A program made the position numbers and the translations under genes. A stretch of DNA of 55,134 nt from Verrucomicrobiota bacterium (GTDB taxonomy: Bacteria; Verrucomicrobiota; Verrucomicrobiia; Chthoniobacterales; UBA10450). Where the stretch lies: assembly GCA_041167305.1 (NCBI GenBank), contig JBEEHI010000138.1, positions 1 to 55,134 on the forward strand, written 5' to 3'. Below are positions 1,597 through 31,956 of this stretch, in pieces. Numbering within the stretch: the stretch's first letter is position 1; each line of letters starts with the position of its first letter. The notes under the pieces were generated by a model. It saw nothing but the letters and a program-made list of their open reading frames with translations. It searched no databases and was not told where the DNA came from.

Positions 1597-1859
1597 GGGA
1601 AGCAGAAGAGAGGCGCGCGAAGTTCTCCTCGCACCGAGTCGTGCTGGATCGCGGGGCCAAGTTCGACGCGCGCCTGGGGAGCCATGCGGCCTTTCTACCG
1701 CGCGGCGCCTGGTTCCAGCAATAGCGAAATTGCGTGGCGCGCACCCGGTCGAAGCGATACCTCCGCTCGAATCGGTTCGTTTACCCATAAAAGTGGCGCG
1801 CTAATCTATTGACACACGCCATTCCTTCCTGCCATAACCCAGCTTGAATCTCCCCCCGT

Positions 1860-2444
1860 ATGCGAAAGCTGCTGATCAAGATTGTCGTCGGTTCGATCAG
1901 GCAGGGTCGAAAAAGTTTGGCGGTGGCGGAATATCTGCACGCCAGGGTCCAGGAGAAAACGGAGCTCGCGGCGCGGCTCCTCGATTTGGCCGATTATCCT
2001 TTACCGCCGCTGGAGGAACGGACCGAGGGCGAGAGCGCCTTGCCCACGGCGCGCAAGCTTTTCGAGCAGCTCGGCGAAGCGGATGGGCTGTTGATCGTGG
2101 CGCCTGAATACAAAGGAGGTGTGCCGGGCGCCTTGAAGAATGTGTTCGATTATTTTCCGCCCGGCCTGCTCCGCCACAAACCGGTGGGCATTTGCACGGT
2201 TTCCGCCGGCGGCTACGGGGGGATCAGTTGCCTCGCTCAACTGCGGCTGCTCACGCTTGCTGTGGGCGGCATTCCGATCCCTGAGTTCATCGCGGTTTCG
2301 AAAGTAAATGAAGTCGCCGGCGAGCGCACCGGTCTGGAGAGGGTCTTGGCCGGAAAGCTTGAGGCATTTTTTACAGAGTTGATTTGGCATTGCGAGGCGA
2401 TGGCGCTACAGCGAGAACGAGAGGAGGCGCGCCGGCCATCATGA
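1860..2444 (+). CDS. NAD(P)H-dependent FMN reductase (SsuE/flavodoxin-like fold family)
   Basis: 194 aa. KIVVGSIRQGRKS...LLIVAPEYKGGVPGALKNVFDY is typical of the NADPH-dependent FMN reductase family. Confidence 0.8.
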   Translation: MRKLLIKIVVGSIRQGRKSLAVAEYLHARVQEKTELAARLLDLADYPLPPLEERTEGESALPTARKLFEQLGEADGLLIVAPEYKGGVPGALKNVFDYFPPGLLRHKPVGICTVSAGGYGGISCLAQLRLLTLAVGGIPIPEFIAVSKVNEVAGERTGLERVLAGKLEAFFTELIWHCEAMALQREREEARRPS

Positions 2445-3973
2445 GCATCCCGGCGACCATCATCGCGACGATGCACGCGACGCCGGCCCGCCGCACCGGC
2501 GGTCTTGGAGATTCCAATTGGATCGAGTGGCGCGGCGATCTGTTGGGCGACGCCGCGCCGCTCGGACTCATGAAGCCCGGCCGGAAGACGCTTTATGCGC
2601 TGCGCAGCAGACTGGAAGGAGGAGAAGGTCCGATTGAGCGCGATGTGCGCCGCGCGCGATTGCTGGCGGCGGCAAAGCGTTTCGATTACATCGAGCTTGA
2701 GGGGAAGCGCGACCTCGATCACGCCATCCTTGCGGCGATTCCGCCACACCGGCGAGTCATCTCGTGGCACGGTAAGGCAACCGAGGCGGGGGCATTGCAT
2801 CAGTTGCTCGCCTCGTTTCGTCGCGCAGAAGCGCACTTGTACCGGTTCGTGACCAGGAGCGAGGAAGTCGCGGCGGCCCTCGCGCCGATCCAATTTCTGG
2901 CCGCCACGGCGCGTCGTGATGTCATCGCCTACGCCGAGAGTGCTAATGCAACCTGGACGCGGCCGCTCGCGGCCCGCTACGGCGCGCCGGTAGTTTTTGG
3001 AACTGTCGCGAACGGCCAGGGACCATCGCCGACGGACCTCTCAGCATTGGTGCGCGACTACGGTCTGCCGGATTTGCATCGGGTAACGGAACTGTGCGCG
3101 ATCGTGGGCAAACCGGTGAACGGTTCGCTCTCGCCCCAGCTGCACAACGCGGCTTACCGCGCGCAGGGCGCCTCACGGCTCTTCGTCCGATTTCCCGTGG
3201 AATCGTTCGGCGTCTTTTGGCACGGCGTGGTGAAAACGGGTCTCTTCGAGGCGATCGGCATTCGGGTGCGTGGGGTCACGGTGGCGTCGCCGCATAAAGA
3301 GTCGGCCCTTGCGGTCGCGGCGGAAATTTCGACGTTCAGCCGGACAACGGAATCGACCAACGTGATGTTCCGGCGCGGCAGTGCGTGGCACGCGGACACC
3401 ACGGACGCTGACGGCGTGTTGATGAACTTCGAGGCGGCGGGGATCGCTTGCGCAAAGCGACGGATCGCGGTCATCGGCTGCGGCGGCTCGGGCCGTCCGA
3501 TTGCCGCGGCGCTGCAGCGGGCAGGGGCGGACGTGACGCTGGTAAACCGGAGCGCCGCCCGTGGACTCTGGGCGTCAAAGCTTTTAGGACTTCCGTTCGT
3601 GCCGCTCGCGCAGTTCAATGCCGCGGAATACGACATGATCGTCAACGCCACGCCAGTGGGGAGAGAAGGAGAAGAGCTGCCCGTCGATGTTACTTCAATG
3701 CCGCGGAGGTCCGTTGTCGTAGACTTGGTTTTTGCCGCAGCCGCCACGCCGTTAAGCGCGGTGGCGCACCGCTGCGGCCACACAATCATTGACGGCCGCG
3801 ACATCCTGCTCGCCCAAGCCGCGCGCCAATACAAATTGATGACCGGCGAGGAGATGCCGCGGATCCCGGCGTGCGATCTTTTGGGCGCGAATGCAAGTCG
3901 CGTGCGGGCAGAATTTCGGGCTGGGAGAAAAACCGCGCCCGTGCCACCACTCAGCGAATCGTTCGCGCAATGA
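2441..3973 (+). CDS. AroD-like (type I dehydroquinase-like) / AroE-like (shikimate-quinate dehydrogenase family) fusion protein
   Basis: ATG 2441 overlaps the upstream stop (ATGA). N-terminal half has DYIELEG and VISWHGK (DHQase I-like). C-terminal half has GSLSPQLHNAAY, VTVASPHK, TTDADG, VIGCGGSGRPIAAAL and IVNATPVG (SDH family). Confidence 0.75.
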   Translation: MSIPATIIATMHATPARRTGGLGDSNWIEWRGDLLGDAAPLGLMKPGRKTLYALRSRLEGGEGPIERDVRRARLLAAAKRFDYIELEGKRDLDHAILAAIPPHRRVISWHGKATEAGALHQLLASFRRAEAHLYRFVTRSEEVAAALAPIQFLAATARRDVIAYAESANATWTRPLAARYGAPVVFGTVANGQGPSPTDLSALVRDYGLPDLHRVTELCAIVGKPVNGSLSPQLHNAAYRAQGASRLFVRFPVESFGVFWHGVVKTGLFEAIGIRVRGVTVASPHKESALAVAAEISTFSRTTESTNVMFRRGSAWHADTTDADGVLMNFEAAGIACAKRRIAVIGCGGSGRPIAAALQRAGADVTLVNRSAARGLWASKLLGLPFVPLAQFNAAEYDMIVNATPVGREGEELPVDVTSMPRRSVVVDLVFAAAATPLSAVAHRCGHTIIDGRDILLAQAARQYKLMTGEEMPRIPACDLLGANASRVRAEFRAGRKTAPVPPLSESFAQ

Positions 3974-4389
3974 GTACGACGAACGAGCCAATGTCTGTGA
4001 ACGGCGAAAGCCAGCCGCCATCGGGTGAGGACCTGGCGGCGAAACTTGATCTTTCCTCGCTCATCGGCCGGTGGAAGAACACCAACGGGGCGACGCGCGG
4101 CATTTCGGAAATCGTCATCAGCGAGGATGGCAAAAACCTGCGCGTGCAAACGTTTGGGGCGTGCGCCTCAGACCCGCGCGATTGGGGAGAGGAGCTCGCG
4201 ACAACCTACGCCTACAGTGTGGTCGGCGACGTCGTAGCGGGTTTCGAGCTGACCTATGATTTCGGAGCGCAGGAGACGCTGGTGACTGCCATTCACAATC
4301 GCGGCGTCCTGGTCATTCATGCGTATCACTGCTTCAAGGATGGCAGCGGCCGCTCCAACTTTATTTCCAAGGAATTTTTCCACCAATGA
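3970..4389 (+). CDS. hypothetical small protein, paralog 1 (GxWxNT beta-barrel-like motif)
   Basis: ATG 3970 overlaps the upstream stop (ATGA). 139 aa. Shares DL..L.G.W.NT...TR...GF...YDF...FKD.SGR...EFF with the next gene. Confidence 0.6.
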   Translation: MSTTNEPMSVNGESQPPSGEDLAAKLDLSSLIGRWKNTNGATRGISEIVISEDGKNLRVQTFGACASDPRDWGEELATTYAYSVVGDVVAGFELTYDFGAQETLVTAIHNRGVLVIHAYHCFKDGSGRSNFISKEFFHQ

Positions 4390-4832
4390 CTTCCTCTCCA
4401 TCGACGAACGCGATTTCCGGAATCAAACGCGACGATACGCCCTCGGGCGACGAGCCAGGCGAGACCGGCCAAGCGGGAGTCGACCTGACCCACCTCCTCG
4501 GGACGTGGGTCAATACCTACCGCGAAACGCGCAGCCTTTGCCGCTTCATCCTGGCTCCGAGCGTGTCCGGTTACTCGATTGAAACGGTGGCGGCGACGGA
4601 GAGCGGCGCTCAAACACTGGGCCAAACGGAGGTGCGTCCATTCGCGCCAAACGTAAATTCCTGGAAGGCCGACGGCTTCACCGCGAGATACGATTTTGAG
4701 TTTTTCGAAATGTCGCTTGCCGCTTATTGCGCGAAAGGTTTGATCGTCGTGTCGCAATACACGCGCTTTAAGGACTGCAGCGGGCGCCCCGATTATTTCA
4801 ATCGCGAGTTCTTTTTCAAAGAGGAGTCATGA
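4386..4832 (+). CDS. hypothetical small protein, paralog 2
   Basis: ATGA overlap at 4386. 148 aa. Colinear similarity to 3970..4389. Confidence 0.6.
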   Translation: MTSSPSTNAISGIKRDDTPSGDEPGETGQAGVDLTHLLGTWVNTYRETRSLCRFILAPSVSGYSIETVAATESGAQTLGQTEVRPFAPNVNSWKADGFTARYDFEFFEMSLAAYCAKGLIVVSQYTRFKDCSGRPDYFNREFFFKEES

Positions 4833-6118
4833 TTTCCGGCACGAGCACTGCCGCAGCCGGCCACGAGGAATTGATCGAGCGCGTAGCCGCCCTGGCGCGC
4901 GAGAAATTTGCCGGGCGCGCGGACCGCTACGACCGCGAGGCAATTTTCCCGGCGGACGATTTTGAGGATCTTTTCGCCGCCGGCCTGCATGCTCCCTGCG
5001 TGCCGGAAAGTTTCGGCGGCCAGGGACTCGGGCCAGGCCACGATGTTTACACTCTCTGGTTGATGACGAAAGAAATCGCCAAGGCGGACATGTCGATGGC
5101 GCGCTGCTGGGAGGGCCACGTGAATTCGCAGGTGCTGATCGACGCGTTTGGGATGGAGGAACAAAAGAAGCGTTGGTTTGAAGGCGTGGTGGATGGGCGG
5201 GAAATCTGGGTCGCGTGGAGCGGCGAACCGCAGTCGAGGATTCCCGGTCAAAAGGCGCGCTTCGGCACGAACGTCACGCGAGTCGAGGGCGGTTATGTGG
5301 TGGACGGGACGAAAGTGTTCGCAACCAGCGCGGGCCACGCGCGGAAGGCGATCTTGCTTGTCGACATCGCCGGGCCGGGCGGGGCGCGCCACGCGGCGGG
5401 CGCAAGCAGCGGCGTGCTGTTGCTGGTGTGCGACCTGGCGGAAAACGCAGTGACTTTCGACGATTCCTGGTGGGACCCGATCGGGATGCGCGCCACGGTG
5501 AGTTATCTCGCGCGATTCGATCGCTGTTTCATCCCCGATCGGGACGTTCTCGGTCAGCCCGGCCAATATCTGGCGGAAGGATGGCAGACCCGGTTTGCGC
5601 CGCATTATGGCGCGACTTTCCTCGGCGGCGCGGAAGCGGCGTTCGAATATGCCCACGCCTACGCCACGAAGGATGAGCGCGAGAGCGATCCGTTTGTCGA
5701 GCAGCGGCTCGGCCAAATGTCTTTGAACATCGAGTGCGCTCATCTTTATCTCGAACACGTCTCCCGGCTGTGGGACGCCGGACGCTGCCACGAGGCGATG
5801 CGCGCCGGCATCCGCGCCAGGTTCCTGGTGGAGAAGTGGGCGGCGGAAACGGTGGATTACGTAATCAAGGCGTGCGGCGCGCGCAGCCTCATCCGGCCCA
5901 GCCCGATCGAACGCATCTACCGCGACCTATCCATTTATGCGCGACATGATAACGCCGATCATCTGTTAGCAACGATCGGGCGCGAGGCGCTGGGAAAAAT
6001 CCACGACGTCTCCTTTTTTCATCTGGAAGAGCGGCCCGCTCCATCAGCATCCAGCAATGGCGAGGCGCGGGCGAGCCTGGGGGAGCCGCAACACGCCAGT
6101 GCCGATGTCGCAGGGTGA
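4829..6118 (+). CDS. acyl-CoA dehydrogenase-fold flavoprotein (possible two-component flavin monooxygenase or oxidase)
   Basis: ATGA overlap at 4829. 429 aa. ACAD-like N-, middle and C-domains (PESFGGQGLG, WVAWSGEPQ, IYRDLSIYARHD...IGREALG). Confidence 0.75.
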   Translation: MISGTSTAAAGHEELIERVAALAREKFAGRADRYDREAIFPADDFEDLFAAGLHAPCVPESFGGQGLGPGHDVYTLWLMTKEIAKADMSMARCWEGHVNSQVLIDAFGMEEQKKRWFEGVVDGREIWVAWSGEPQSRIPGQKARFGTNVTRVEGGYVVDGTKVFATSAGHARKAILLVDIAGPGGARHAAGASSGVLLLVCDLAENAVTFDDSWWDPIGMRATVSYLARFDRCFIPDRDVLGQPGQYLAEGWQTRFAPHYGATFLGGAEAAFEYAHAYATKDERESDPFVEQRLGQMSLNIECAHLYLEHVSRLWDAGRCHEAMRAGIRARFLVEKWAAETVDYVIKACGARSLIRPSPIERIYRDLSIYARHDNADHLLATIGREALGKIHDVSFFHLEERPAPSASSNGEARASLGEPQHASADVAG

Positions 6119-6139: not shown

Positions 6140-7246
6140 ATGGACCGAAGAAAGATTGCATACTGCGATTTCGGATTGAATGCCGCGATCAGCCGCAGCT
6201 TGCGACCGCGGCTCGACGCGGCGTTTCCCGAAAACCCGGTGGAAGTGATCGGCCTCGGCGAACTGGTGAGCCTCCGAAATTGGCGGAATATCGCGGACGT
6301 GCTGCTCCACTACGGCTGGGAGATATTGTCAGGGCGGAAACGGTTCAAAGATTGCCTGCTCCGCACCCGATACAGCTTCGAATCAATCCGCCGCGCCTTA
6401 CGCCGCCGCCTCACCGCCGACTCATATCGGTTCACTTTTCAGACCGGATCACGGGTCGACGGGAGCGTGCCCGGGATCCCGCACTTTGTTTACACCGACC
6501 ACACGCACCTGGCTAATCGACAGTACCCGGAACCTCCACCGGACTGGAAATTTTCGACGGAGTGGATCGAATTGGAACGCGAGATTTACCATCGTGCGAC
6601 ACGCGTCTTTACGTTCAGCTCGAATATTGGCAGATCGCTCATCGAAGATTACGGCGTGGAGCCCGCGAAAATCCGGTGCGCCTACGCCGGCGGCAATCTG
6701 CCCCGCAGGCCGGGTGCGCCCGTCAGAGTCCCCGGCGGAAAGACGATCCTGTTCGTGGGAATGGAATGGGAACGGAAAGGCGGCCCGCTCCTGGTCGCTG
6801 CGTTTCGGCGAGTGCTGCGGGAGCATCCGGACGCTAAGCTGCTCATCGTCGGATGCGCGCCCGCGGTTTCGGTGCCGAACTGTGAGATTCTTGGTTTGTT
6901 GCCGATCGAGGAAGTGGCAACTCATTTCCAACGGGCGAATGTTTTCTGCATGCCCACGCGGTGCGAACCTTTTGGGGTCGTCTTTGTAGAAGCGATGCTT
7001 GCCGGATTGCCAGTGGTCGCGACCAGACTGGGCGCCCTACCCGACATGGTGCATGACGGGGTAAACGGTTTTCTCATCGAAAGCGGCGACGAACGCGGCC
7101 TCGCTACGGCTCTAGGCACCCTGCTGGCAGATCCGAAAATGTGCGCCGCTCTTGGCGCGCGTGGAGCGGCGCTCGCCGAACAGCAATACACATGGGAAAA
7201 CAGTGTGGCGATCATGAGAGCCGAGATGGTCCGCGCGGGAGCATAG
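6140..7246 (+). CDS. glycosyltransferase family 4 (GT-B)
   Basis: 368 aa. EPFGVVFVEAMLAGLPVVATRLGALPDMVHDGVNGFLIE (E-x7-E region). Confidence 0.85.
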   Translation: MDRRKIAYCDFGLNAAISRSLRPRLDAAFPENPVEVIGLGELVSLRNWRNIADVLLHYGWEILSGRKRFKDCLLRTRYSFESIRRALRRRLTADSYRFTFQTGSRVDGSVPGIPHFVYTDHTHLANRQYPEPPPDWKFSTEWIELEREIYHRATRVFTFSSNIGRSLIEDYGVEPAKIRCAYAGGNLPRRPGAPVRVPGGKTILFVGMEWERKGGPLLVAAFRRVLREHPDAKLLIVGCAPAVSVPNCEILGLLPIEEVATHFQRANVFCMPTRCEPFGVVFVEAMLAGLPVVATRLGALPDMVHDGVNGFLIESGDERGLATALGTLLADPKMCAALGARGAALAEQQYTWENSVAIMRAEMVRAGA

Positions 7247-7494
7247 ATGCCCGTGCCGCCGATCCATAACCGGCGGTGCCGGTGAATCATGCCTAATTAT
7301 CGTTTTAGAGATCGCAAAGGGCGCTCGAACTATGTTACCAAGGAGCTCAGCGATGACCATGGCCGCCCCACCCCTGAACGAACGTTTTCCGGCGAAACGA
7401 GACCGCCAGCCCTCGGATAGTGCCGCCTGGACCAGGGTCGTGTCGACGGAGGAGGCGCGAGCTAGCTTAAGCAAACACCCACACCCCAGCACCC

Positions 7495-8637
7495 ATGTCG
7501 CAGGCTGAACGGAGTACGGGCGGCGGAGCCCCACCCCTGAGGCCGCTGCGGTTTCACTGGAGTATGTCCAGTGCCGGCAGCGAGTTGAAAGGGGCGAAAG
7601 CGCGCGCCGCGCAAAATGGGATTCCCGATCTCGCGGCGCACGTTGCATATTGCGAGGCGGCCGAGTGGTGCGGGATTGAATCGCTTTTGACGGCATTTGG
7701 TTTTCACCGGCCCGATCCAATTGCCCTGGCCGCCGCGCTGGGCGTGCTGACGTCGAAAGTAAAGTTCATGGTCGCCGTCCGCTCGGGAGTCATTTCGCCC
7801 ACGTCGTTCGTGCAGCAGGTCAACACCGTTTCCGCACTAACGCAGGGGCGAATTTGCCTGAATGTGGTCGGCGGCCACACGCCGAAAGAGCAACGCGCGT
7901 ATGGCGATTTCCTGAGCCACGACGAGCGCTATGCGCGCACAGACGAGTTCCTCTCCATTTGCCGCGCGCTTTGGGCCGAGGAAGAGCCGGTGAGCTTCAA
8001 GGGCGCCTATTATGAAATCGAAGACGCCGTGGTGAAGACGCCCTTTGTCTCGAACGAACGACGCGCGCCGGAAATTTTCCTTGGCGGCGCATCGGACGCA
8101 GCGCTGAATCTCGCGGTGCGGCACGCGGATTGTCTCTGGACGCTGCCGCGTTGTCCTGAAGAAATAGCGCCTCGATTGCAGCCTGTCCTCGAGAGCGGGA
8201 CTGAAGTCGGTCTGCTGCTTTCAATCATCGCACGACCGAGCCGCGAGGAAGCGGTCTCCGATGCCTACGCGCTCCTCGACCGCGTCGGCGGCAAGGCGCG
8301 ACAGGTGCACGAGGAATTTTCGACGCGCTCCGATTCGGTGGCCTTCACGGGAACGCTCGCGCTCGCGGAGAAGAATGGCGGCGACTGGCTGACGCCGTGG
8401 CTCTGGACCGGCGCGGTGCCGTATCTCGGTGCGCCCGCGATCGCGCTGGTCGGTTCGTACGACGAAGTGGCGGGAGCGATCCGTGCCTTCGAGGAAGTGG
8501 GCGTCAGCCAATTTCTATTTATGGGATGGCCGGACCTCGAGGAGATGAAGCGGTTCGCCGGCGAGGTGCGGCCGCGGCTCGAGTCCTCGGCGTCTCGACG
8601 CATTGCTGACAACTCGCGCGCACCCATTTTGAAATGA
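7495..8637 (+). CDS. LLM-class flavin-dependent monooxygenase (SsuD-like)
   Basis: 380 aa. KFMVAVRSGVISPTSFVQQVNTVSALTQGRICLNVVGGHTPKEQRAYGDFLSHDERYARTDEF aligns by eye with the SsuD core. Confidence 0.8.
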   Translation: MSQAERSTGGGAPPLRPLRFHWSMSSAGSELKGAKARAAQNGIPDLAAHVAYCEAAEWCGIESLLTAFGFHRPDPIALAAALGVLTSKVKFMVAVRSGVISPTSFVQQVNTVSALTQGRICLNVVGGHTPKEQRAYGDFLSHDERYARTDEFLSICRALWAEEEPVSFKGAYYEIEDAVVKTPFVSNERRAPEIFLGGASDAALNLAVRHADCLWTLPRCPEEIAPRLQPVLESGTEVGLLLSIIARPSREEAVSDAYALLDRVGGKARQVHEEFSTRSDSVAFTGTLALAEKNGGDWLTPWLWTGAVPYLGAPAIALVGSYDEVAGAIRAFEEVGVSQFLFMGWPDLEEMKRFAGEVRPRLESSASRRIADNSRAPILK

Positions 8638-9737
8638 AAATGAAATTCCATTGGCGACTCCTGCAAGGCGGGGAAACCGCGAACATGACGCGCGCAGCCG
8701 GCTGGAATCGGCGCGAGACCGGCATGCCGGATCTGGAGCGGCAGGTGGAATTTTGCCGGCGCGCCGAGGAATGCGGAATGACCGGGCTGCTCACCGATAT
8801 CGGCGCGGCGAAACCGGATCCGATCCTGCTCGCCGCTGCGCTTGGACTGGCCACGGAGAAGATCGAATTGATCGTCGCCTATCGTTCCGGGCTGATTCCG
8901 CCGACGACTTTTGTCCAGCAACTGAACACACTCTCCGCGCTCATCCAGGGCCGGTTCAGCTTGAATATCGTCGCCGGCCATTCGCCCCTCGAGCAACGCT
9001 ACTACGGCGATTTTCTTAGCCACGATGAACGTTATCCGCGGACGGAAGAGTTTCTCGCCATCTGCCACGCTTTTTGGCGCAACAACGACCCCGTCAATTT
9101 TCAGGGCAAGTATTATCAGATCGAGAACGGGCGGTTGAATACCGTGTTCGTTTCAAAATCGCGCACGAGTCCTGAGATTTTCATCGGGGGCGGTTCGGAG
9201 GCGGCACGCACCCTGGCGATTTCGCAAGGCTCGTGCTGGATGCGCCTCGCGGACACGCCGGCGAACCTGGAACCGGACGCGAAGACGGTGCTGGCGGCGG
9301 GCAAGGAAGTGGGCGTGCGCGTCTGCGTGATTTGTCGCCCCACGCGCGCGGCCGCGGTGCGAGCGGCTTACGAGCTGGTCGCCGGTCTTGATCCCGCCTT
9401 GCGCGACGCGGAGCACGAACGCGACTTCATGCGCAAGAGTGACTCAGTTTCAATCCGCCAAGTTTACGAGATGGCGGAAGGCGAATGGCCGGCTTCCTGG
9501 CTTTGGACGGGCGCGGTCCGGACCCACGGCGGCGCGGCGATCGCCGTGGTCGGCAACCCGGAGGAGGTCGCCTCGGCATTCATCGAATACAAGCGCGCAG
9601 GTGTTACGCAATTTATCCTCGCCGGTTGGCCGAAGCTCGATGAGATGATCATTTTCGGCCGCGACGTTCTGCCCTTGATCCGCCAAGAAGAGCGCGCCCT
9701 CGATGAAGTGCGCGGCGCCAGCAGCCACGATGACTAG
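8634..9737 (+). CDS. LLM-class flavin-dependent monooxygenase (SsuD-like), paralog
   Basis: ATGA overlap at 8634. 367 aa. Colinear with 7495..8637 (IVAYRSGLIPPTTFVQQLNTLSALIQGRFSLNIVAGHSPLEQRYYGDFLSHDERY). Confidence 0.8.
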   Translation: MKMKFHWRLLQGGETANMTRAAGWNRRETGMPDLERQVEFCRRAEECGMTGLLTDIGAAKPDPILLAAALGLATEKIELIVAYRSGLIPPTTFVQQLNTLSALIQGRFSLNIVAGHSPLEQRYYGDFLSHDERYPRTEEFLAICHAFWRNNDPVNFQGKYYQIENGRLNTVFVSKSRTSPEIFIGGGSEAARTLAISQGSCWMRLADTPANLEPDAKTVLAAGKEVGVRVCVICRPTRAAAVRAAYELVAGLDPALRDAEHERDFMRKSDSVSIRQVYEMAEGEWPASWLWTGAVRTHGGAAIAVVGNPEEVASAFIEYKRAGVTQFILAGWPKLDEMIIFGRDVLPLIRQEERALDEVRGASSHDD

Positions 9738-10500
9738 CGAAATCTCACGCGCGCGCTTTGAGCGGGACGGCATCGTTTTTCCAATCCCGGCTCTATCGCC
9801 GGAGAAGACCGCTGCTTACCGGACCTGCTTTGCAGAGCTCGAACAGAGTGCCGGCAGCCCGCTTTATCGGCTCCAAAATCCAACAGCACACTTCGCCTGG
9901 GCTTATCGCCTGGCGACGGAGCCGGCGGTGCTCGACGCCGTGGAGGAAGTGCTCGGACCAGACTTACTCATCGCGGGATCTCTCGTGCTCTGCAAATATC
10001 CCCGTGACCCGGCCTTCGTCGCCTGGCATCAAGACAACTATTATTCGAACCTGCATCTGACGCCCTCACTCTCGGCCTGGATCGCCTTGCTGGACAGCAC
10101 AACCGAGAACGGCTGTATGCGCGTGATTCCGGGCTCGCATCAAAACGGTGTTCTGCCGCACGACGAAATGGGGAATGCCGAAAATCTTCTCAATCAAGGA
10201 CAGGAGATTCGAGTGGAGGTGAATGAGGCCGACGCGTTGGAGGTGATCTTGCGCGCGGGCGAGATGTCGCTGCACCATACCGCCATCATTCACGGTTCGC
10301 GCCCGAATCGGTCGGACACGAAGCGGCTCGGATTTATCGTACGTTTCGTAACGAGTGCATACGATCTGGCGTCCCAGCAGACGCCATTTTTCCTCGCGCG
10401 AGGCAGTGCGGCCAACGGCAATCTCCACCTGGCGGCGGCGCCGCCTGAGCGTCCGCTGGCGGAAGCTTGGAACGAATTTGAGCAGCGGCAATCGAGCTAA
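9730..10500 (+). CDS. phytanoyl-CoA dioxygenase (PhyH) family Fe(II)/2-oxoglutarate oxygenase
   Basis: ATG 9730 overlaps the upstream gene by 8 nt. FERDGIVF, WHQDNYY (HxD) and a distal HHTAIIHGSRPN. Confidence 0.75.
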   Translation: MTSEISRARFERDGIVFPIPALSPEKTAAYRTCFAELEQSAGSPLYRLQNPTAHFAWAYRLATEPAVLDAVEEVLGPDLLIAGSLVLCKYPRDPAFVAWHQDNYYSNLHLTPSLSAWIALLDSTTENGCMRVIPGSHQNGVLPHDEMGNAENLLNQGQEIRVEVNEADALEVILRAGEMSLHHTAIIHGSRPNRSDTKRLGFIVRFVTSAYDLASQQTPFFLARGSAANGNLHLAAAPPERPLAEAWNEFEQRQSS

Positions 10501-10503
10501 GCC

Positions 10504-11544
10504 ATGAGAATTGCGCTCTGGTCGAACCAACCCTACGGCGCGTATTTCGCCAATGGCGTGGGGCGGGCGCCGCGGCAGGTGCCGTCCGGCTCCGGACATT
10601 ATCTGCACGACACCCTGGTAAAAGGCCTGGCAGAACTGGGGCATGAAGTTTTTTATCATTTGCCAGCGGGGGCCGTGACGGCGCTCCCACCAGGCGTCCG
10701 GATGATCGATAAGTTGCCGGCGGACGTGGACATCCTGCACAACTATTCGAGTTCCCGCAGCGACGCCGGGCTGATGGATCACGTGCGCGCACATGGAATT
10801 CCCTGGGTCACGACGTGCCATCTCGACATTAAGGCGCGGGGCCTGGAGCGAAACTACGCGGGATGGAATTGGATCTTTGTCTCGCAGACGTTGGCACGAC
10901 TCTATGGCCGCAGCCGATTTGTCCACAACGGGCTGGATCCGGCGGGCTATCGCTACTGCGAGCACAAAGGAGATTACTACGTCTTCATGGCGAGCATGGA
11001 CTGGGCGGTGGAAAAGGGGCTCGAGATTGCGTTGCGGCTTGCCCGGGAGATGGGATTTCGGTTGATCGTCGCGGGAACCAGTCGCGATTCTTCCGTCATT
11101 CGACAAATCGGTGTGCTGTGCCGTCGCGCCGGCGCCGAGTACGTAGGTGATGTGCGCGGCGAGGAAAAAGCCAATCTCCTGGCCAGCGCGCGCGCCTTGT
11201 TGCATCCGACGCAGCTCGAAGAGGCTTTCGGCCTCGCGATGGCGGAAGCGCTGATGAGCGGCACCCCGGTGATATGCAGCGATCGCGGCGCCTGTCCGGA
11301 GGTAATTTCGCCGGAGGTCGGCTTTGTTTGCCGTGACTTGGACGACTATCGGCCAGCAATTGAAAGAGCCGCCGAGATTCCGCCTGCAGCCTGCCGGGAA
11401 AAGGCGATGCGAGAGTACCACTATCATGTGATGGCGGCAGGGTTCGTGCGGGAATACGAGGCGGAGCTGGCCCATCCGAGTGAGGGAAACCTGGAGAGTG
11501 ATCTGGAGAGATTGTCCCTGCCGGCTGGCGCTCGCGGGTTGTAA
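10504..11544 (+). CDS. glycosyltransferase family 4
   Basis: 346 aa. EEAFGLAMAEALMSGTPVICSDRGACPEVISPEVGFVC. Paralog of 23009..24019. Confidence 0.85.
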   Translation: MRIALWSNQPYGAYFANGVGRAPRQVPSGSGHYLHDTLVKGLAELGHEVFYHLPAGAVTALPPGVRMIDKLPADVDILHNYSSSRSDAGLMDHVRAHGIPWVTTCHLDIKARGLERNYAGWNWIFVSQTLARLYGRSRFVHNGLDPAGYRYCEHKGDYYVFMASMDWAVEKGLEIALRLAREMGFRLIVAGTSRDSSVIRQIGVLCRRAGAEYVGDVRGEEKANLLASARALLHPTQLEEAFGLAMAEALMSGTPVICSDRGACPEVISPEVGFVCRDLDDYRPAIERAAEIPPAACREKAMREYHYHVMAAGFVREYEAELAHPSEGNLESDLERLSLPAGARGL

Positions 11545-11549
11545 AGATC

Positions 11550-12854
11550 ATGGCTCGAGGTGCGCACCGATTCCGTGAGATGTTTCAGCACCGTGTCTGT
11601 ATCAATCTCGATCGCAGGCCGGAGCGGTGGCAGCGCATGCAGGCGCGCTTCGCAAAAGTCGACTTGGGATCGGTGGAACGGTTCCCCGCCGTGGACGGAG
11701 CAAATTTAGAGGTGCCCGCCGAGTGGCCCGAATCGGCCGGGGCGTATGGATGTCTGCAAAGCCACCTAGCCGTGGTGCGCCAGGCACGAGCGCAAGGGCG
11801 CGAAAATGTTCTGATCGTCGAAGACGACGTGCTTTTCGCGGAAGGCTTTCATGAGGAATTCGAAAAGCGAGTGCGCGGGCTGCCGGCGGATTGGGACATG
11901 CTCTTCTTTGGTTGTCTGCATCACGATCCGCCTGCGCCGGTCGCCCCGGGGATCGGCCGGCTGCGCGCTTCGTTTTCCACTTTGATGTATGCGGTGCGAC
12001 GAACGGTTTACGACGCCTTCATCTGCCTGAACGAACGGGAAGAGTACGCCGTCGACCGAAGTAATTGGGAACTTCAGGAGCGGTTCAATTGTTACTGTTT
12101 CCTGCCGCACCTGGCCTGGGTGGATGACAGTTACTCCGACGCGCAAGGAGTGCTCTCCAACCATTGGTATATCCGCGACTCGATGGTGTTGCGCGGCGAG
12201 GAGATGAAATCGATGGAGAAGCGCACGGCAATAGTCATCCCCTACCGCGAGAACGGGAACCGCGAACGCGGTTTGAAAAACCTGCGTTTTTTGGTCCGGC
12301 ATTACGGCGCACTCTTTTCAGTGCTTATCGTGGAACAGAACGAGGAGCCTCGCTTGAACGCGAACGCGGCGCCGGTGGGGTGCGAATACATTCATCTGCC
12401 CGAGGCGCGGCAGGAGAACTATTATGCGGCAGGCTTGGAAAAATTCGGGCAAGCCAAAGACTTCATCATCATCAATGATGGAAACGTCGTGTGTTCGCGC
12501 ATGGAGATGCGGGCCAGCCTCTGCAAATGTGTCGAGCACGACGCGGTGGGATCGTTCGCCACTTTCATAGACCTGGACGACGCGGACAGCGATCGGTTGC
12601 TCAACGGCAGGGAGTATCACACGGAGCGCTATTCGGCCCGTGTGCGGCGGGGCCGGTTCCGCGAATATTTTACGGCCACGATGAAAGGACTGCGCGACCT
12701 CTGCTCCTCCGGCACACTCGCGGGCGGCGATGGGGATGCCGCGCCCAGCGCAGATTTGCGCATCTTCGATTCGCCGGGATCGGCGCTCTGCCTTTCTTCG
12801 GGCCAATCCGGGCACCAGAAATTTTGTCAAGAAAATAGTACGAATTGTGATTGA
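11550..12854 (+). CDS. two-domain glycosyltransferase (N-terminal GT25-like, C-terminal beta-1,4-galactosyltransferase/GT7-GT2-like)
   Basis: 434 aa. N-terminal INLDRRPERW...GAYGCLQSHLAVV...VLIVEDDVLF. C-terminal TAIVIPYRENGNRERGLKNLRFLVRHY...LIVEQNEE. Confidence 0.7.
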   Translation: MARGAHRFREMFQHRVCINLDRRPERWQRMQARFAKVDLGSVERFPAVDGANLEVPAEWPESAGAYGCLQSHLAVVRQARAQGRENVLIVEDDVLFAEGFHEEFEKRVRGLPADWDMLFFGCLHHDPPAPVAPGIGRLRASFSTLMYAVRRTVYDAFICLNEREEYAVDRSNWELQERFNCYCFLPHLAWVDDSYSDAQGVLSNHWYIRDSMVLRGEEMKSMEKRTAIVIPYRENGNRERGLKNLRFLVRHYGALFSVLIVEQNEEPRLNANAAPVGCEYIHLPEARQENYYAAGLEKFGQAKDFIIINDGNVVCSRMEMRASLCKCVEHDAVGSFATFIDLDDADSDRLLNGREYHTERYSARVRRGRFREYFTATMKGLRDLCSSGTLAGGDGDAAPSADLRIFDSPGSALCLSSGQSGHQKFCQENSTNCD

Positions 12855-13287: not shown

Positions 13288-13568
13288 GCCTTGAGGCGAG
13301 GTGACGTGTCAACGGCGCCGAACGTCCTGAGAGACCCGAGGACGCCCAAACCCTAAACATCAACCCATGATCAAGTAACCACTCTTGTGTGCGCGCCCTG
13401 GAAATCTTTTGGGTCCGACTGGTATTGCCGTCGGAATCAAGGGCGCGCCGCATCAGTGGGAGTCGGAATCCATCCGGCGTTCGAGCCTCCGGTGGACATA
13501 AGATGGTACCTGAAGAGGAATCACAAACTCGGCTGCGCGAGCAGCTGTTCGAACCAGAGGAAACTGCA

Positions 13569-16500
13569 ATGAGATACACCCACCTGTTCCGCCTTGGCAG
13601 CGCCGTAGCACTCCTGGCATTCGCCTTGGGCCCAGCAGCACCGGCAAAGGAAGCTCCCGTCGTGTGCAACCGCACCATCAAGGTGCAGATAGTCGCCTTC
13701 GATCAACCATGGATGTGGAATCGTCTCGGCGCAGCGCAGCCCGGCGGCATGATCTACGCGCTGGCCCGCGACGTTGTGAAGAACATGGATGGCTCGCCCT
13801 TGCCGGACGACTTGAAAGCTCTAAAGCCGGAGGATTCTAAATCGCTTTGCGGTGGCGTGCGCCTCCGCGATGGCAAACGCGCGCGTCCGCTCGTCCTGCG
13901 CGCGAACAAAGGGGATTGCCTCGAGATCACTTTCTTGAATCTGCTCCAACCGGATCCCGTGGCGGCGGACAACCGCCTGCCGGCTGCGGCTACTCGCTTT
14001 GCCGGGATCCATGCGGCGGGGATGGAGTTGGGAGACAAGTCGAGCGACTCGTCCTGGGTCGGCAACAATCCGAGCAGCCTCGCCGAAAACGGACAGACCA
14101 AGATCTATAAGTGGTACGCCGCAGAGGAAGGAACCTTCCTCATATATAGCGCCGCCGATATGGAAAGTGGTTATCAAGCCAAGGAAGGCTTGTTCGGCGC
14201 GATCCACGTCGAGCCCGAAGGGGCGGAATGGTATCGCAGCCAGATCACTCATGACGATCTGGAGCAGGCGACATTAACCGAGGCCGACTTGAAGGAGTAT
14301 TCCCAGAAATTGGTCGGAGCTTCCGTCGCAGCCGATCCACCGCCAAAGACGGCGGAAAAGATCGCGCCGGCGGCCGAGAAACCGCCGCCGGGAGCCGAAA
14401 ACTTTACCAAGAAAACGCTGGAAAGCTACGTCGCCGACAAGCGCTCCAGTGTCACCGTCTTCGTGGATGAAAAAGGCGCGGGCGGAAAACGTATCCATAC
14501 GGCCACCGGCCAGCCGCGGATCTATTATAACGCCCTGTATCCGGCGAAGGAGCAAAAGCGTGGCGTGCCTGTGCTGCAAATGCTGCAAGTAAATCCAGTT
14601 GGCGCGGCCCTGTACGACCAGCCTTTGCAGAAACAAAACCCAGCCGATTACATTGAGGAGGTGAGCGATTTGGACGCGGGCATCATTCCGGCCAAACTGC
14701 GGGCCCTCTTCAAAGATAAGAAACAGGAGCTCTCGCCCGGCGCGAAGGTGGTTGAGCAATACCGTTATAGCTGGCTGATCACCGACGAGGGCAAGGCCTT
14801 TTACGTGACGGCGAACCTTCCATCGACAGCGCAGGTAGCGCAGGCCCGTCAGCTCCAGATTTTCGCGGCCGAGCTGGAGCTGATTTATAGCGATCTCACC
14901 GCTGTGATTACCGGACCGAACGCCGGCAGGTTCTCGTACGCCAACACGAGCCCGACCTTTCGGGAGAACCCGGCTTCGCCCGATCGCCGCCAGCCGTACC
15001 GCGAGTACACGATAATTTATCATCAAGCCTTTTTCGCCACGCAAAGCTTTGCGTCTTTTGCGAACGCGAATCTGGTCAACGTCATTCAGCCTGGCGCCGA
15101 TAACTTCGCCATCAATTACGGTTCGGCCGCCATCGGCCCTGAGATAGTGGCGAATCGGCTGGGGGTGGGACCGATGGGAAATCGGGACGCGGTGGACTTA
15201 AAGTTTGAAGAATTCTTCCTCAGCGCCTGGGCGGTCGGAGATCCCGCCATGGTGGTGGATCATCCCGCGAATGCTTCCAACGCGATGGTCGGTTCTCCTT
15301 CTCTGGATGAGCACAGCGCGCTGCGGACCCAGGTTCCGCCAGGGTCCGTCGCCCAGCAACTCGCCGCCGCTCACGCGCCGCCGCTGCCGCGCCCGGCACA
15401 AGTGAGTCCGCCGGGAAGCGACGACTTCGCCCCGCTGCCGGCGCCGCCCGTCAAAGCGACGAAGGCGTTTTTTCCGGCTGATCCGTCGAACGTCTACCAC
15501 AGCTACATGAACGACCACGTGAAGTTCCGCATCCTCCATGCGGGACCCGGCCCGTCGCACGTCCATCATTTGCACGCGCACCAGTGGTTGCGCTCACCCG
15601 ATAGCGACGACGGCCATTATCTGGATAGCCAGCTCATCGTGCCGGGTTCGGCCTTCACTTTGGAGATCACCTACAACGGCAGTGGCAACCGCAATAAAAC
15701 GGTGGGGGATGCGATTTTCCACTGCCACTTTTATCCCCATTTTGCCCAGGGCATGTGGGCCATGTGGCGCGTTCACGACGTGTTCGAGGGAGGAACGCTG
15801 CTGGACAAAAACGGAGTACCGCTCAGTGGGGTCAACCGGGCGTTGCCGGATGGTGAGATCGAGCACGGCACCCCGATCCCGGCGATCGTGCCGCTGCCCA
15901 CTTTGGGCATGGCTCCGATGCCGGCGGAAGTGGAGCTCACGGACCTTTCGCCTTGGTCGCCGGGAGGGCAAGGCCGGCGAGTCCTCGTCCATAAGGAAAA
16001 GGACGGGACGTATCGGAGCCCGGGCTATCCCTTCTTCATCCCAGGAGTCGCCGGGCACCGCCCGCCGCACCCGCCGCTCGATTTTGCCTGGCTGGAGGAG
16101 CCTGATACCGGCAAGGCGATCCTGAGCCCGAGCCCATCGCCAGACCCAAGCCCTGGCAAGGATAGGAAGATTTATCTCGATGGCGGCCTGCCGCGCCACC
16201 TGGTCCTGGATGGTAAGGTGGTCAAGGAGTTCCATACGCGCTGGGACTTCAGCAAAGACACCGCGCTGCGCGATAAGGATGGAAATATTATTCCCGGCGG
16301 CGAGTTGTCGGCTTTCGAGCTCCCGGAGGAGGGCACGCCGGTAGAGCTTGCGGCCATGAAGGAACACGCCACGCGGACCCGGCCGACGACCCAGCCCAAT
16401 GGCGATCCCGGAAATTTCATCCTCAACGGTTTGCCTCCAACGCCGGGAGCGCCCTACGCCGATCCAGCGGTGACGGATGAAGGGAATGCCAACCCGCATC

Positions 16501-19500
16501 GCCGACGGTATCAAGCCGCCGTGTTTCAAATCGACACAGTTCTAAATAAGAAGGGCTGGCACTATCCCCAACAGCGAATGATTTCGCTCTGGCAGGATGT
16601 GAAACCGACGGTCGACACCACGCGCCCGCCGCAGCCCTTCTTCTTCCGCACCAATACTTCGGATAGCATCCAATACTGGCATACCAATCTGCTGCCGAGT
16701 TACTATGAGCTGGACGATTTCCAGGTCCGCACGCCAACGGACATCGTGGGGCAGCATATCCATCTGGTGAAGTTCGACGTGACTTCCTCCGACGGCGCGG
16801 AGAATGGGTTTAACTATGAGGACGGCACTTACGCGCCCGACGAGGTCCAGGAGCGGATCGCTTCCATCAATGCCAAGGGCGGTTTGTTTGCCTTCGACCC
16901 GGCGACGGGATTTGTGAATAAGGCGGCGCAACAAACACTTACCCCTAAGAAGGTCAAAGATTACTATCCGCCTCCCGACAGCAAATATGCCGGGCTGGAC
17001 GGCAATGGTGTTCCGACATGGACAAATCCGAATCCCAACGTGCTCTCCGTGTTCGGTCCGCCGACGGGCCGTTCCGATGCATGGGATGGCGCCCAGACGA
17101 CGATCCAACTCTGGGAGGTAGACGCACTCCTCAATAATGAAGGAGTCGACCGGACGCTGCGGACCGTCTTCACGCACGACCACTTCGGGCCGTCGACCCA
17201 CCAGCAGGCGGGTCTCTACGCGGGTATGATCGTCGAGCCGGAAAACTCGGAATGGTACCTGCCCGATGGTCTGCGGATGAACACGCGGCTCGATGGCGGT
17301 CCCACCAGTTGGCACGGATATATCGTGACCGACGATCCCAAAGATAGTTATCGCGAGTTTGTCCTCGAGTTCCAGGACATGCAGCTGGCCTACACCAAAG
17401 AGAGCCGGAAGAAGCCCTCGGCCAAAATGTTCGATCCCGATCTGGATCCCAAGGATTGCGGGGAGAACGGTAAGGAATGCTCCTCGCCGGCGTTCGACAT
17501 TGCGCAGGCCCATAGCATCGCCGGGATAAAGATCACCTACCTGCCCCTGTACGTCGCCGATCTGGACCAGGGCAAGCTTCCGGTGCCCCCACCGCAGGCA
17601 ATCGGCGCTGCGCCGTTCACCGAATTGTTCCCGCAGTTTGGAATTCCGCTTTCGAAAAATGCGACGGTGGCGGTCGTGACCAAAGGGGAGAAATGGACGA
17701 TCACGGAAGCGGCGAACGAAATCAACGGCAAGGCGAGCGACGGCAAGGCGACGAAATATATCGTGCGCGCCACGTTTGAAGCAAACCCCACGACGGGCGG
17801 CAAAACAATCAAGCAGCTATTGGTTTACACGCCGGATATTTCCCCGGGCTGGGCCGACGCGAAGTTTGCCCTCAATGCGCCGGGCGACAATGAAAACGCC
17901 GGGAATGGACCGCCGTTCGCGCAAATCGTGAGCCAGAACCAGAACGGCACCTATTCGCTGAATTATCGCAACGAACCGGTGCCATTCCGAGTCGCCTGCC
18001 CGCCGAATATGACCGAAAACGCCGACCTGGCGCTGGCCTTTAGCTCGATCAAGCGGAGCGATGCAGACCTAAACATCCAGCCCGACGGGAAGCCTGGCTT
18101 TCCCAAAACGCCGCTGGTGCCAAATGCAAAGGGGACGGATCCCTATACGCCACTGCTCGAAGCTTACGTGAACGATCGTGTGCAAATTCGCACGCTCGTA
18201 GGCGCGCACACGCAAGCGCACGCTTTCCAAATTCATGGAGTGAAATGGTTGTATGAGCCCGATAATCCCAACTCGGGTTGGCGCAACGCGCAACTCATGG
18301 GGCTCTCGGAACACTTCGAAATGATTTTCGACTTGCCCGGCACCACCTTCAAGCACGGGGGGCCAAACCCCGTTCCTGACCCGCAGATGCCGCCGTTCGC
18401 CGATTATTTTTATTCGCCCAGCTCCGACATCGTCGGATTGAACAATGGCCTTTGGGGAATCATGCGCTCTTATGGCGCCCCCGTTCCGGGTGTGCAGCCA
18501 TTGCCGAACAATCCGAAGCCCGCCTCCAATGTCGAAAACGACCTGTTCAAAGATGGATATGACAAGGCTCCGAAAGCCCTCCGACAGGACTTCAAAGTCA
18601 CGGCGGTGACGGCGGATGTGCTCCCGAATGGCAATCTGATTTACAACGGCCGCGATCCGGGCAGCCAGCTCTCCACCAATGAAGCGGTGCTCTTCGTTCG
18701 CACCGACGATCTGGACCCCACAACAAAGAAACTAAAATCTAGCGTGCCAGTCGAGCCTTTGATTCTTCGGGCCGCGGCGGGCCAATGGATCAAGGTGACT
18801 TTGCACAATGCGTTCGATGTGAAAAGCAAAGCGTTGACGGATATCGAGACGCTTCCTTATGGCACCCCCTTTACCGGTGGACCGGACGCTCCGGAACCCG
18901 GTCTGAAGACTTCCGCAAAGGTCGGCTTGCACCCGCAATTGGTCGGCTTCGATCCAATCAACGCAAACGGTGTCCTCGTCGGGTTCAATCCGAAAGACCG
19001 GCTGGTGGACCCAGGCCAGACGCGCGATTTCTATTGGTATGCCGGGGAGCTAAGGCGAGACGAAAACGGAAAGATTCAGGCGCAGCCGATCGAGTTTGGC
19101 GGCACGAACCTTACTTCGGCCGATCAACTGCTTCAGCCCCAGTTCGGCATGGTGGGCGCGCTGATCATTGAGCCGGAAGGCGCCACCTGGACCGAGGATG
19201 TCTCCAGCCGCGCCTCTGCCACCGTCAAGTTCCCGGGCGGCGCCGATTTCCGGGAATTCGTGGTGATCGATCAGAACATGGTGGCCAACTCGGCGGCGGA
19301 CAATAGTGTTCTGGCCAGTGTCGCGGGAAGCGCAATCGGGGCAATAAATTACCGCTCGGAGCCGTTTGGGATTCGCGGCGTGCCGAGTAACGCCCAAAAC
19401 TTTCCACAGCCTGCGCCGCAGGGGTACGCGCAAGCCTTCTCCAATAGCATGTTCAATCCGCCGGCCGATCCGCAAACCCCGGTGTTCGTGGCCGCAGCTG

Positions 19501-20105: not shown

Positions 20106-20107
20106 CG

Positions 20108-22201: not shown

Positions 22202-22243
22202 ACGTTTGCGAGGGACCCAGGAAATCTCCCTGCCGCTCTCGGC

Positions 22244-26175: not shown

Positions 26176-26272
26176 ATCCCTCTATTTCCAACAAAACGAG
26201 ATGCCGCGCCAAGCACAATTTCCGCCAGATTTAGATTGAAGCTGGAAGTGGAAACTCCCTACCCTTGCAGCC

Positions 26273-28237: not shown

Positions 28238-28248
28238 GACCTGATGCT

Positions 28249-31852: not shown

Positions 31853-31956
31853 GCATCTTTTGCATGGCAATCCAGACGGCAGCTCTCTACGATCCCTTCG
31901 CTCCCCGACCAAAGAAACAACTGCGTGCAACGCGATTGCCGCAACCTCTCCAGATC

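Follow-up and report, generated by a model that had tools for sequence, protein, structure and literature searches.

Flavin-dependent oxygenases of group D, such as DszC, SfnB and MsuC, adopt the three-domain fold of acyl-CoA dehydrogenases (ACADs) with an Asp instead of the Glu of the YEGT motif, contain a His-Asp pair and are encoded in operons with a flavin mononucleotide (FMN) reductase. In DszC, His391 helps to protonate O2 toward the C4a-hydroperoxide (PMC11134501). The MsuEDC and Dsz systems combine a reductase with group D and group C enzymes, and in the sulfonate-binding loop RGGA of SsuD and MsuD the Arg is essential, the R296A variant being inactive (PMC8234197). The six-gene mnxG operon of Pseudomonas putida GB-1, which encodes a Mn(II) oxidase, comprises a giant MnxG together with a beta-propeller protein, SCO1/SenC and a fusion of a binding protein with cytochrome c (PMC11409713, Table 4). 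Bacillus MnxG needs two small (~12 kDa) accessory proteins with no known homologs, MnxE and MnxF, in the basic unit E1F1 (PMC5622069). Here we analyze a 55,134-nucleotide stretch of DNA from a Verrucomicrobiota bacterium (GCA_041167305.1, contig JBEEHI010000138.1; hereafter the window) in which five genes, g1–g5 (positions 1860–6118), encode an FMN reductase, an AroD/AroE-like fusion, two small barrel paralogs and an ACAD-fold protein. These genes make up the 5' half of a longer operon, which lies next to the operon of a giant MnxG-type multicopper oxidase. The parts belong to known enzyme classes; the whole would be a multi-component flavin-dependent oxygenase system.

The chain consists of the open reading frames (ORFs) g1 (1860..2444), g2 (2441..3973), g3 (3970..4389), g4 (4386..4832) and g5 (4829..6118), all on the + strand. 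Reading of the window sequence confirmed these coordinates and showed an ATGA at all four junctions, in which stop and start codons overlap, as a preliminary description of this DNA had claimed. Its domain calls also hold for g1, g2 and g5 in Pfam, and the paralogy of g3 and g4 was confirmed by alignment. A single ATGA junction is unremarkable, because 8 of the 34 same-strand junctions in the window have 4-nt overlaps, but a run of four is unusual (~0.24^4 if independent). Among homologous loci, all four overlaps are present in L004, L006 (one as GTGA) and L007, three in L005 and two in L001, whereas in a more distant clade, with the genes arranged as FMN_red-AroDE-ACAD-g3-g4, the four overlaps are missing. 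Since close relatives keep the overlaps and the distant clade with another order loses them, the ATGA overlaps are real but represent a lineage trait rather than a fixed property of the system. The inference previously drawn from them, tight coupling with fixed stoichiometry, thus survives in part: the coupling is lineage-specific, and fixed stoichiometry is supported only for g3:g4, which form a single fused protein in many relatives.

The chain also extends beyond position 6118. In loci that lack the first glycosyltransferase gene of the window, the ACAD gene overlaps the next gene, encoding a luciferase-like monooxygenase (LLM), by 14 nt; the junction between the two LLM genes is ATGA, and the overlap between LLM and PhyH genes is 35 nt. 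Consistently, the g7–g8 (LLM–LLM) junction of the window, at 8634, is also ATGA, and g8 overlaps the PhyH gene by 35 nt. Because the ACAD gene overlaps the first LLM gene in relatives without this glycosyltransferase, the chain continues unbroken past the ACAD gene into the LLM pair, the PhyH gene and glycosyltransferase genes, with g1–g5 as its 5' half. The five genes, earlier treated as a functional unit, are therefore not one by themselves: the operon runs on through two LLMs, PhyH and glycosyltransferases and is tied to an mnxG-type oxidase operon. The gene that separates g5 from the LLM pair in the window, a GT4 glycosyltransferase (6140..7246, +; Pfam Glyco_trans_1_4 and Glycos_transf_1), is a lineage-specific insertion; only the window and L005 have it between the ACAD and LLM genes, it is absent from that place in L004, L006 and L007, and in L001 it lies upstream of g1. 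An Rfam search of the whole window gave no family at the gathering score, so no riboswitch or other RNA control was seen. Promoter and terminator scans of the window found sites no more common than in shuffled sequence, and they do not define the limits of the operon.

Carriers of the cluster are metagenome-assembled genomes of Verrucomicrobiota and Acidobacteriota, in which the gene order is shuffled. Among species genomes, g4 orthologs come from assemblies of Verrucomicrobiota/Chthoniobacterales, from one that is labelled Chloroflexia and, as a distant match, from one of Thermoanaerobaculia. Mapping by tblastn revealed a conserved array of genes for FMN_red, the AroDE-like fusion, two barrels and ACAD (in either order), LLM, LLM, PhyH, GT4/GT25 and a giant MnxG homolog. 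The MnxG homolog lies beside the cluster in 17 of the 17 homologous loci with enough flank. This adjacency, kept across phyla despite rearranged gene order, would be difficult to account for without a functional tie to the oxidase. Fused barrels appear in the same kind of cluster in a Chthoniobacterales genome (L016), a 4.4-Mb contig (L017) and a Blastocatellia genome (L018), whose clusters additionally contain methyltransferases, other glycosyltransferases, SCO1, the cytochrome c fusion and a membrane protein with an LMWPc domain. In L021, a two-barrel gene and two LLM genes only stand beside a 1,936-aa giant gene and glycosyltransferase genes. A profile of the two-barrel protein retrieved 80 metagenome loci, 64 of which have at least one cluster partner; of the 63 loci flanked by 1 kb or more, 37 contain an ACAD or LLM gene of the cluster type within 2.5 kb. 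Literature searches gave no name or description for the cluster, and database names are just 'hypothetical' or 'AidB-like ACAD', in agreement with the previous remark that it is not a described one. Searches combining mnxG with glycosyltransferase, luciferase-like monooxygenase, ACAD fold or lipocalin likewise found nothing relevant.

The Thermoanaerobaculia locus L013 (DATELQ010000104.1) holds the most distant version of the cluster. It has three LLM and two PhyH genes together with genes for a methyltransferase, a GT32, a protein with a RidA domain and an aminotransferase of the DegT/DnrJ/EryC1 type; the 15 kb covered there showed neither an AroDE-like gene nor one for FMN_red.

The giant gene of the window (13389..20105, +) has 2,238 codons and no Pfam match. 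Its product aligns with MnxG of PDB entry 9bxa in five stretches (E 4e-70), and the copper motif HCHx3Hx4M is seen in the translation. The oxidase is probably secreted through the Sec pathway, as suggested by a signal peptide after an internal Met. Further downstream, Pfam identified genes for a beta-propeller with YtkA, a double SCO1/SenC and a fusion of a periplasmic binding protein with cytochrome c (26273..30892, +), the same partner gene set as is listed for P. putida GB-1 (PMC11409713, Table 4). The two systems thus share the giant MnxG homolog and these three partners, but the six-gene operon of P. putida contains no flavoenzyme, barrel or glycosyltransferase genes, whereas in the window such genes precede or interrupt the oxidase genes. 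The stretch 13389–30892 as a whole is a Pseudomonas-type mnxG operon with interspersed glycosyltransferase genes. It is interrupted by a GINT1_N glycosyltransferase (19991–20968), a GT32 (20860–21726), a GT4 (23009–24019, −) and a 719-aa gene of no known type (24016–26175, −), the last of which recurs in other loci.

The product of g5 matches the N domain of Acyl-CoA_dh (64.6 bits) and the C domain Acyl-CoA_dh_2 (47.9 bits) in Pfam, with the M domain (25.4 bits) below the cut-off. It aligns over its full length with ACAD and DszC structures and has the three-domain ACAD fold. HMMER alignments place the YEGT Glu of genuine ACADs (the MCAD-376 position) opposite Asp374 of g5, in R372-H373-D374-N375, so the earlier by-eye reading of this position as ARHDNA was correct. 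There is also no Glu at the second ACAD base position (IVD-254), although this comes from manual reading of the alignment with 2dvl and is less certain. H97, Y370 and R372-H373-D374-N375 are invariant across phyla (H373-D374 in 15 sequences from several phyla). H373-D374 aligns with H391-D392 of DszC, and H97 with the N-domain His of DszC ('gyHltn'). The replacement of the catalytic Glu by Asp and the invariant His at the position of DszC His391 support the proposal, already made in the preliminary description, that g5 is no dehydrogenase despite its ACAD fold and forms a pair with the NAD(P)H:FMN reductase.

In fold, Asp at the YEGT position, His-Asp pair and an FMN reductase in the operon, g5 resembles DszC, SfnB and MsuC. 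However, it reaches only 80–86 bits against them, has Tyr for DszC H388 and lacks a sulfur-pathway context; its scores on the curated models of SfnB (TIGR04022, 83.5 vs 430.9 bits) and DszC (NF043015, 79.7 vs 850 bits) are below the cut-offs. Judged by these residues, g5 probably works like a DszC/SfnB-like group D flavin oxygenase, outside the DszC and SfnB families themselves. We know of no Dsz, Sfn or Msu system with barrel proteins such as the two coupled to g5. The g5 clade comprises at least 1,743 clusters at 90% identity, all from metagenomes or Verrucomicrobiota/Acidobacteriota assemblies and with generic names only. A nitrososynthase-type amino-sugar N-oxygenase was rejected for g5: the score of 3mxl is only 45 bits, lower than those of DszC and the ACADs, and the window has no nucleoside diphosphate (NDP)-sugar genes.

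The product of g1 matches FMN_red in Pfam (110.9 bits, cut-off 24), and its best NCBIfam match is MsuE (49 bits, cut-off 212). It is an NAD(P)H-dependent FMN reductase of the SsuE/MsuE class, and we propose that it supplies FMNH2. Orthologs of g1 were found in Verrucomicrobiota loci; in L022 a nitroreductase-family gene takes the place of FMN_red.

The g2 protein consists of a dehydroquinase-like domain (residues ~1–200) and a shikimate dehydrogenase (SDH)-family domain (residues ~215–475), both of which are weak Pfam matches (DHquinase_I, 37.9 bits; Shikimate_dh_N, 37.4 bits). Its closest solved relative is the bifunctional dehydroquinate (DHQ) dehydratase-SDH of Arabidopsis (2gpt; E 6e-28, full-length alignment), an enzyme type of plants and chlamydiae with the same domain order. 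By alignment, we compared 13 members of the family with AroD, AroE and YdiB of E. coli. In the dehydroquinase half, the position of the Schiff-base residue K170 of AroD is occupied by R135 in the window, with which the Arabidopsis alignment agrees; it is Arg in 11 of the 13 members, Val in one (L017) and Lys in one (L018). AroD residues R48, R82, E86 and R213 are retained. The general base H143 is not conserved across the family: S-W-H-G of the window can be brought into line with S-N-H-D if shifted by one residue, and other lineages have R, S, Y or C. As the Schiff-base Lys has become Arg, this half appears degenerate and is unlikely to dehydrate its ligand by the Schiff-base route. Since the carboxylate-binding Arg residues are kept while the Lys is lost, a role as a binding or scaffold domain is more likely than one as a dehydratase.

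In contrast to the dehydratase half, the SDH half retains AroE S14, S16, K65, N86, T101, D102 and Q244 as well as the GCGGSG and NRS motifs. The g2 equivalents, including K286, D322, S229, S231, N307 and Q459, are conserved in the family, with D322 replaced by Glu in two members. By these residues the SDH half apparently is active and of the NADP type, with the catalytic Lys/Asp and NADP motif of the Arabidopsis enzyme kept. Its substrate need not be shikimate, because the SDH family includes 5-ketofructose reductase (7cok, among the g2 matches). Unlike the plant and chlamydial enzymes, g2 is located in a flavoenzyme and glycosyltransferase operon rather than in aromatic amino-acid biosynthesis.

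Going by Pfam domain names alone, one could take g2 for a housekeeping AroD/AroE and g5 for a fatty-acyl-CoA dehydrogenase in a coincidental neighbourhood. This is extremely improbable. The AroD Schiff-base Lys and the ACAD catalytic Glu are both absent, g2 fails the equivalog models (NCBIfam aroE, 143.9 vs 200.2; PRK09310, 75.3 vs 598), no electron-transfer flavoprotein (ETF) gene was found among the 39 scanned window ORFs, which are all the gene calls made, and the tight synteny is kept across phyla. Housekeeping AroDE activity with beta-oxidation was rejected on the active-site residues of g2 and g5, and the fusion is not a housekeeping copy, a point on which the earlier interpretation is supported.

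The preliminary description instead pointed to the making or modification of a cyclitol- or shikimate-derived unit, possibly for attachment by downstream transferases. This can be cast as a self-contained pathway in which g2 and g5 make or modify a shikimate- or quinate-derived cyclitol unit that transferases then attach, with no functional tie to the oxidase. The SDH half does keep all the shikimate/quinate-binding and catalytic residues, and the dehydroquinase half its carboxylate-binding Arg residues; glycosyltransferases and methyltransferases are conserved partners, and the Thermoanaerobaculia version adds a DegT-family aminotransferase and RidA. On the other hand, the cluster contains no shikimate-pathway feeder gene, g2 lacks the dehydratase Lys, SDH-family enzymes also act on keto-sugars (7cok), and such a pathway leaves the invariable adjacency of the MnxG homolog unaccounted for. 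We therefore consider it fairly unlikely as a whole; a cyclitol- or shikimate-derived substrate is possible.

The two small proteins, g3 (139 aa) and g4 (148 aa), are paralogs with 31% identity (E 3e-19). Neither has a Pfam or NCBIfam match, and no family model for the barrel family exists there. Alignment of the g3 and g4 families revealed the common motifs G-x-W-x-N-T and F-x-D-G-S-G-R...E-F-F. An AlphaFold2 (AF2) model of g4 (predicted local distance difference test, pLDDT, 81.7) shows an eight-stranded antiparallel up-and-down barrel with a disordered N-terminal tail. A fused homolog, P0292, was modeled as a rigid two-barrel unit with eight strands per domain (pLDDT 89.8; predicted template-modelling score, pTM, 0.87). 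Foldseek searches with both models returned single-barrel matches only, to avidins, lipocalins and fatty-acid-binding proteins (FABPs), with probabilities of 0.99–1.0, E>=4e-3 and template-modelling (TM) scores of 0.4–0.65. The best of these were avidins (TM 0.58–0.65, normalised to the target) and lipocalin-type PGD synthase; no solved structure with the two-barrel arrangement was among the matches, and a g4-family profile matched no PDB chain at E<=10. According to the models, then, g3 and g4 would be avidin/lipocalin-like eight-stranded barrels of a new family. They share with these calycins the eight-stranded antiparallel up-and-down barrel of ~110–120 residues, and the G-x-W on their first strand resembles that of structurally conserved region 1 (SCR1) of lipocalins. 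They differ from calycins in the lack of a significant sequence or Foldseek match (E>=4e-3), in motifs of their own (F-x-D-G-S-G-R..Y-F-x-R-E-F-F) and in a heterodimeric or tandem organisation.

A profile search of the barrel family gave 1,079 representatives at 50% identity, many of which are ~285-aa tandem fusions of two barrels; the 138 matches found as g4 orthologs include none with an assigned name. Apart from tandem barrels, the fusions observed were confined to secreted multi-repeat proteins and one dockerin fusion; no enzyme was among the fusion partners. Because the two barrels occur naturally fused, a 1:1 g3:g4 complex is supported. Exclusive association of the barrel family with the flavoenzyme cluster was rejected, since one subfamily lies beside a radical SAM gene. 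Additionally, an I-K-R-D-D motif is nearly invariant among g4 orthologs; it lies in the N-terminal tail (window 4386–4470), which is disordered in the AF2 prediction. The fused two-barrel proteins have R-x-x-D at the N-terminus before barrel one and a conserved Asp in the linker before barrel two. The I-K-R-D-D or R-x-x-D tail might serve as a short motif for docking.

Two small paralogs, or their fusion, that co-occur with MnxG homologs call to mind the accessory subunits of the Bacillus enzyme. One could accordingly picture g3/g4 as a functional analogue of MnxE/MnxF, with the flavoenzymes, PhyH and glycosyltransferases hydroxylating and glycosylating the giant oxidase itself, and the minimal loci L026, L059 and L021, which hold only a two-barrel gene, LLM genes, a propeller and the giant oxidase, fit such a maturation role. 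It is nonetheless very doubtful. The barrels have no signal peptide, whereas the oxidase is apparently Sec-exported, and they are operon-coupled to cytoplasmic flavoenzymes rather than to the oxidase gene. Nor did the g4-family profile, which matches no PDB chain, point to MnxE/F (the PDB copy searched has 9bxa, and the presence of MnxE/F chains in it is unconfirmed), and 9bxa is absent from the 50 listed Foldseek matches of either model.

Downstream of the inserted GT4, g7 (7495..8637, +) encodes a luciferase-like (group C) flavin monooxygenase that we term type A (Pfam Bac_luciferase, 156.7 bits), and g8 (8634..9737, +) a type B enzyme that is 45% identical to g7. Both types recur in most related loci. 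They are followed by g9 (9703..10500, +), a PhyH-family Fe(II)/2-oxoglutarate dioxygenase (Pfam PhyH, 93.2 bits) that is conserved in related loci. Its H-x-D motif, WHQD, indicates that g9 would be a hydroxylase and not a halogenase. A GT4 (10504..11544, +) and a GT25-domain glycosyltransferase (11550..12854, +) complete this part, and most loci keep this pair, placed between the PhyH gene and the giant one.

With an FMN reductase, an ACAD-fold protein and an LLM pair, the genes could also be viewed as an Ssu/Msu/Sfn/Dsz-like pathway that scavenges organosulfur compounds, oxidising sulfides, sulfinates or sulfonates, and releases sulfite under sulfate limitation. Indeed, with its reductase and its enzymes of groups D and C the layout fits MsuEDC and Dsz (PMC8234197), and the best NCBIfam names are all those of sulfur-acquisition proteins (MsuE/SsuE for g1, SfnB/DszC for g5, SsuD/SfnG for g7 and g8). 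A flavodoxin-like FMN reductase and SsuD-like TIM-barrel monooxygenases are likewise common to the window cluster and to SsuE/SsuD and MsuE/MsuD. However, the scores are far under the curated cut-offs (49 vs 212 for MsuE, 83.5 vs 431 for SfnB and 175 vs 518 bits for SsuD with g7), and g7 and g8 have 27–28% identity to E. coli SsuD. At the position of the sulfonate loop RGGA, g7 has L-G-A-P and g8 has H-G-G-A, so the essential Arg is replaced by Leu and His, respectively, and it is absent in related loci too. In further contrast to the Ssu and Msu enzymes, the window has two distinct, coupled LLM paralogs and no SsuABC/TauABC-type sulfonate transporter, TauD or desulfinase genes; the nearby ABC systems are PstS/PstB-like in the window and WtpA-like in L003. 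The constant companions of the cluster are glycosyltransferases, methyltransferases and the MnxG operon, which argues for biosynthesis rather than scavenging. With the sulfonate-loop test failed and no sulfonate transporter found, sulfur scavenging was discarded as the lead explanation, and we consider it quite unlikely.

Gene structure, domain identities, active-site states, the barrel family and the linkage across phyla are observed; from the gene content and active-site residues we infer a flow of flavin, a role for the barrels, a class of substrate and a part in manganese oxidation. In the reading we prefer, to which we give about an even chance, g1–g5 and the downstream genes would form a cytoplasmic, multi-component FMNH2-dependent oxygenase/dehydrogenase tailoring module whose product is then glycosylated and is connected with the MnxG-type oxidase. 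The g1 protein would reduce FMN with NAD(P)H, and the FMNH2 would feed three oxygenases, the DszC-like g5 and the luciferase-like pair g7/g8, in which a peroxyflavin would form and oxygenate a small substrate. With NADP(H) as cofactor, the g2 protein would oxidise or reduce a secondary alcohol or keto group of a polyol-acid, a cyclitol or a compound resembling a sugar. The 1:1 barrel pair of g3 and g4 would bind or hand over the substrate or serve as accessory subunits of the oxygenases. PhyH would hydroxylate the product, and the adjacent glycosyltransferases, with methyltransferases in other lineages, would decorate it. The product would then serve a function connected with the neighbouring secreted oxidase. 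None of the module's proteins carries a signal peptide, and either the product or the barrel pair would have to reach that enzyme.

Several observations weigh against this reading. First, g5 scores about equally on dehydrogenase and monooxygenase models (AcrC 90.8, SfnB 83.5 and DszC 79.7 bits), and its closest solved relatives by profile are 5z8t/5gj7 (118 bits), followed by 2dvl, both above DszC (86 bits) and MCAD (82 bits); 2dvl was deposited simply as 'acyl-CoA dehydrogenase', and literature searches on 5z8t/5gj7 found no paper giving their function. Second, the barrels are not always beside the ACAD gene: they adjoin LLM genes in L016 and L021, and L021 has no ACAD or AroDE gene within 10 kb. 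A two-barrel subfamily linked to radical SAM genes (L084, L085 at ~6926–10779, L086, L092 at ~1169–5312, L101 and L103) lacks flavoenzyme partners altogether. Third, the window contains no substrate-defining enzyme (no NDP-sugar or DAHP/DHQ synthase gene). Finally, the flavoenzymes and barrels, as read from their sequences, have no signal peptides while the oxidase is secreted, and the linkage to mnxG is one of position.

A further recurring member of the cluster is a fusion of a transporter with an LMWPc domain. In the window, a PstB-like ABC ATPase carries a C-terminal LMWPc (Wzb/ArsC-like) domain (33987..35723, +). This domain, with 37–48% identity, is fused to a ~340-aa polytopic membrane domain directly after the ACAD gene in L017 (12140–13633), L018 (12202–13845) and L022 (8344–9846). 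The fusion may be relevant to how the product or the barrel pair reaches the secreted oxidase. The LMWPc-bearing ATPase of the window is part of a PstS/PstB-like ABC system at 31849–35723.

We also considered a stronger form of the proposed tailoring module, in which the two-barrel/LLM/ACAD/SDH-like module is an obligatory partner of MnxG-type oxidases in uncultured soil Verrucomicrobiota and Acidobacteriota. Here, a glycosylated, oxygenated polyol-acid would chelate Mn(III) or template the oxide, or the barrel pair would be a counterpart of MnxE/MnxF. This stronger form is tentative and rather improbable.

Apart from the cluster, the window encodes a prokaryotic homolog of pentameric ligand-gated ion channels, with Neur_chan_LBD and a transmembrane region (36124–37164, −), and a protein built of LDL-receptor class B (YWTD) repeats (52831–53766, −). 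A riboflavin-pathway fusion (53773–55125, −), whose ORF start lies near the window end, has GTP cyclohydrolase II N-terminal to DHBP synthase. The usual domain order of RibBA is the reverse.

Despite its abundance in soil metagenomes, the cluster has not been named, its barrel domain lacks a family model, and the matches listed include no cultured representative. No published description was found of the two-barrel family, of a disabled dehydroquinase domain combined with an SDH domain, of group C and group D oxygenases with barrels, or of the cross-phylum linkage to mnxG. The cluster brings together three flavin oxygenase classes, a fusion repurposed from the shikimate pathway and the operon of an MnxG-type oxidase. 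Even without a link to manganese, it provides a new two-barrel calycin-like domain family and a natural case of a disabled dehydroquinase domain retained beside an apparently active SDH-type domain. If the link is functional, the cluster would mark which soil Verrucomicrobiota and Acidobacteriota may oxidise manganese, and it would point to an organic partner molecule or to accessory proteins of these poorly understood giant oxidases.

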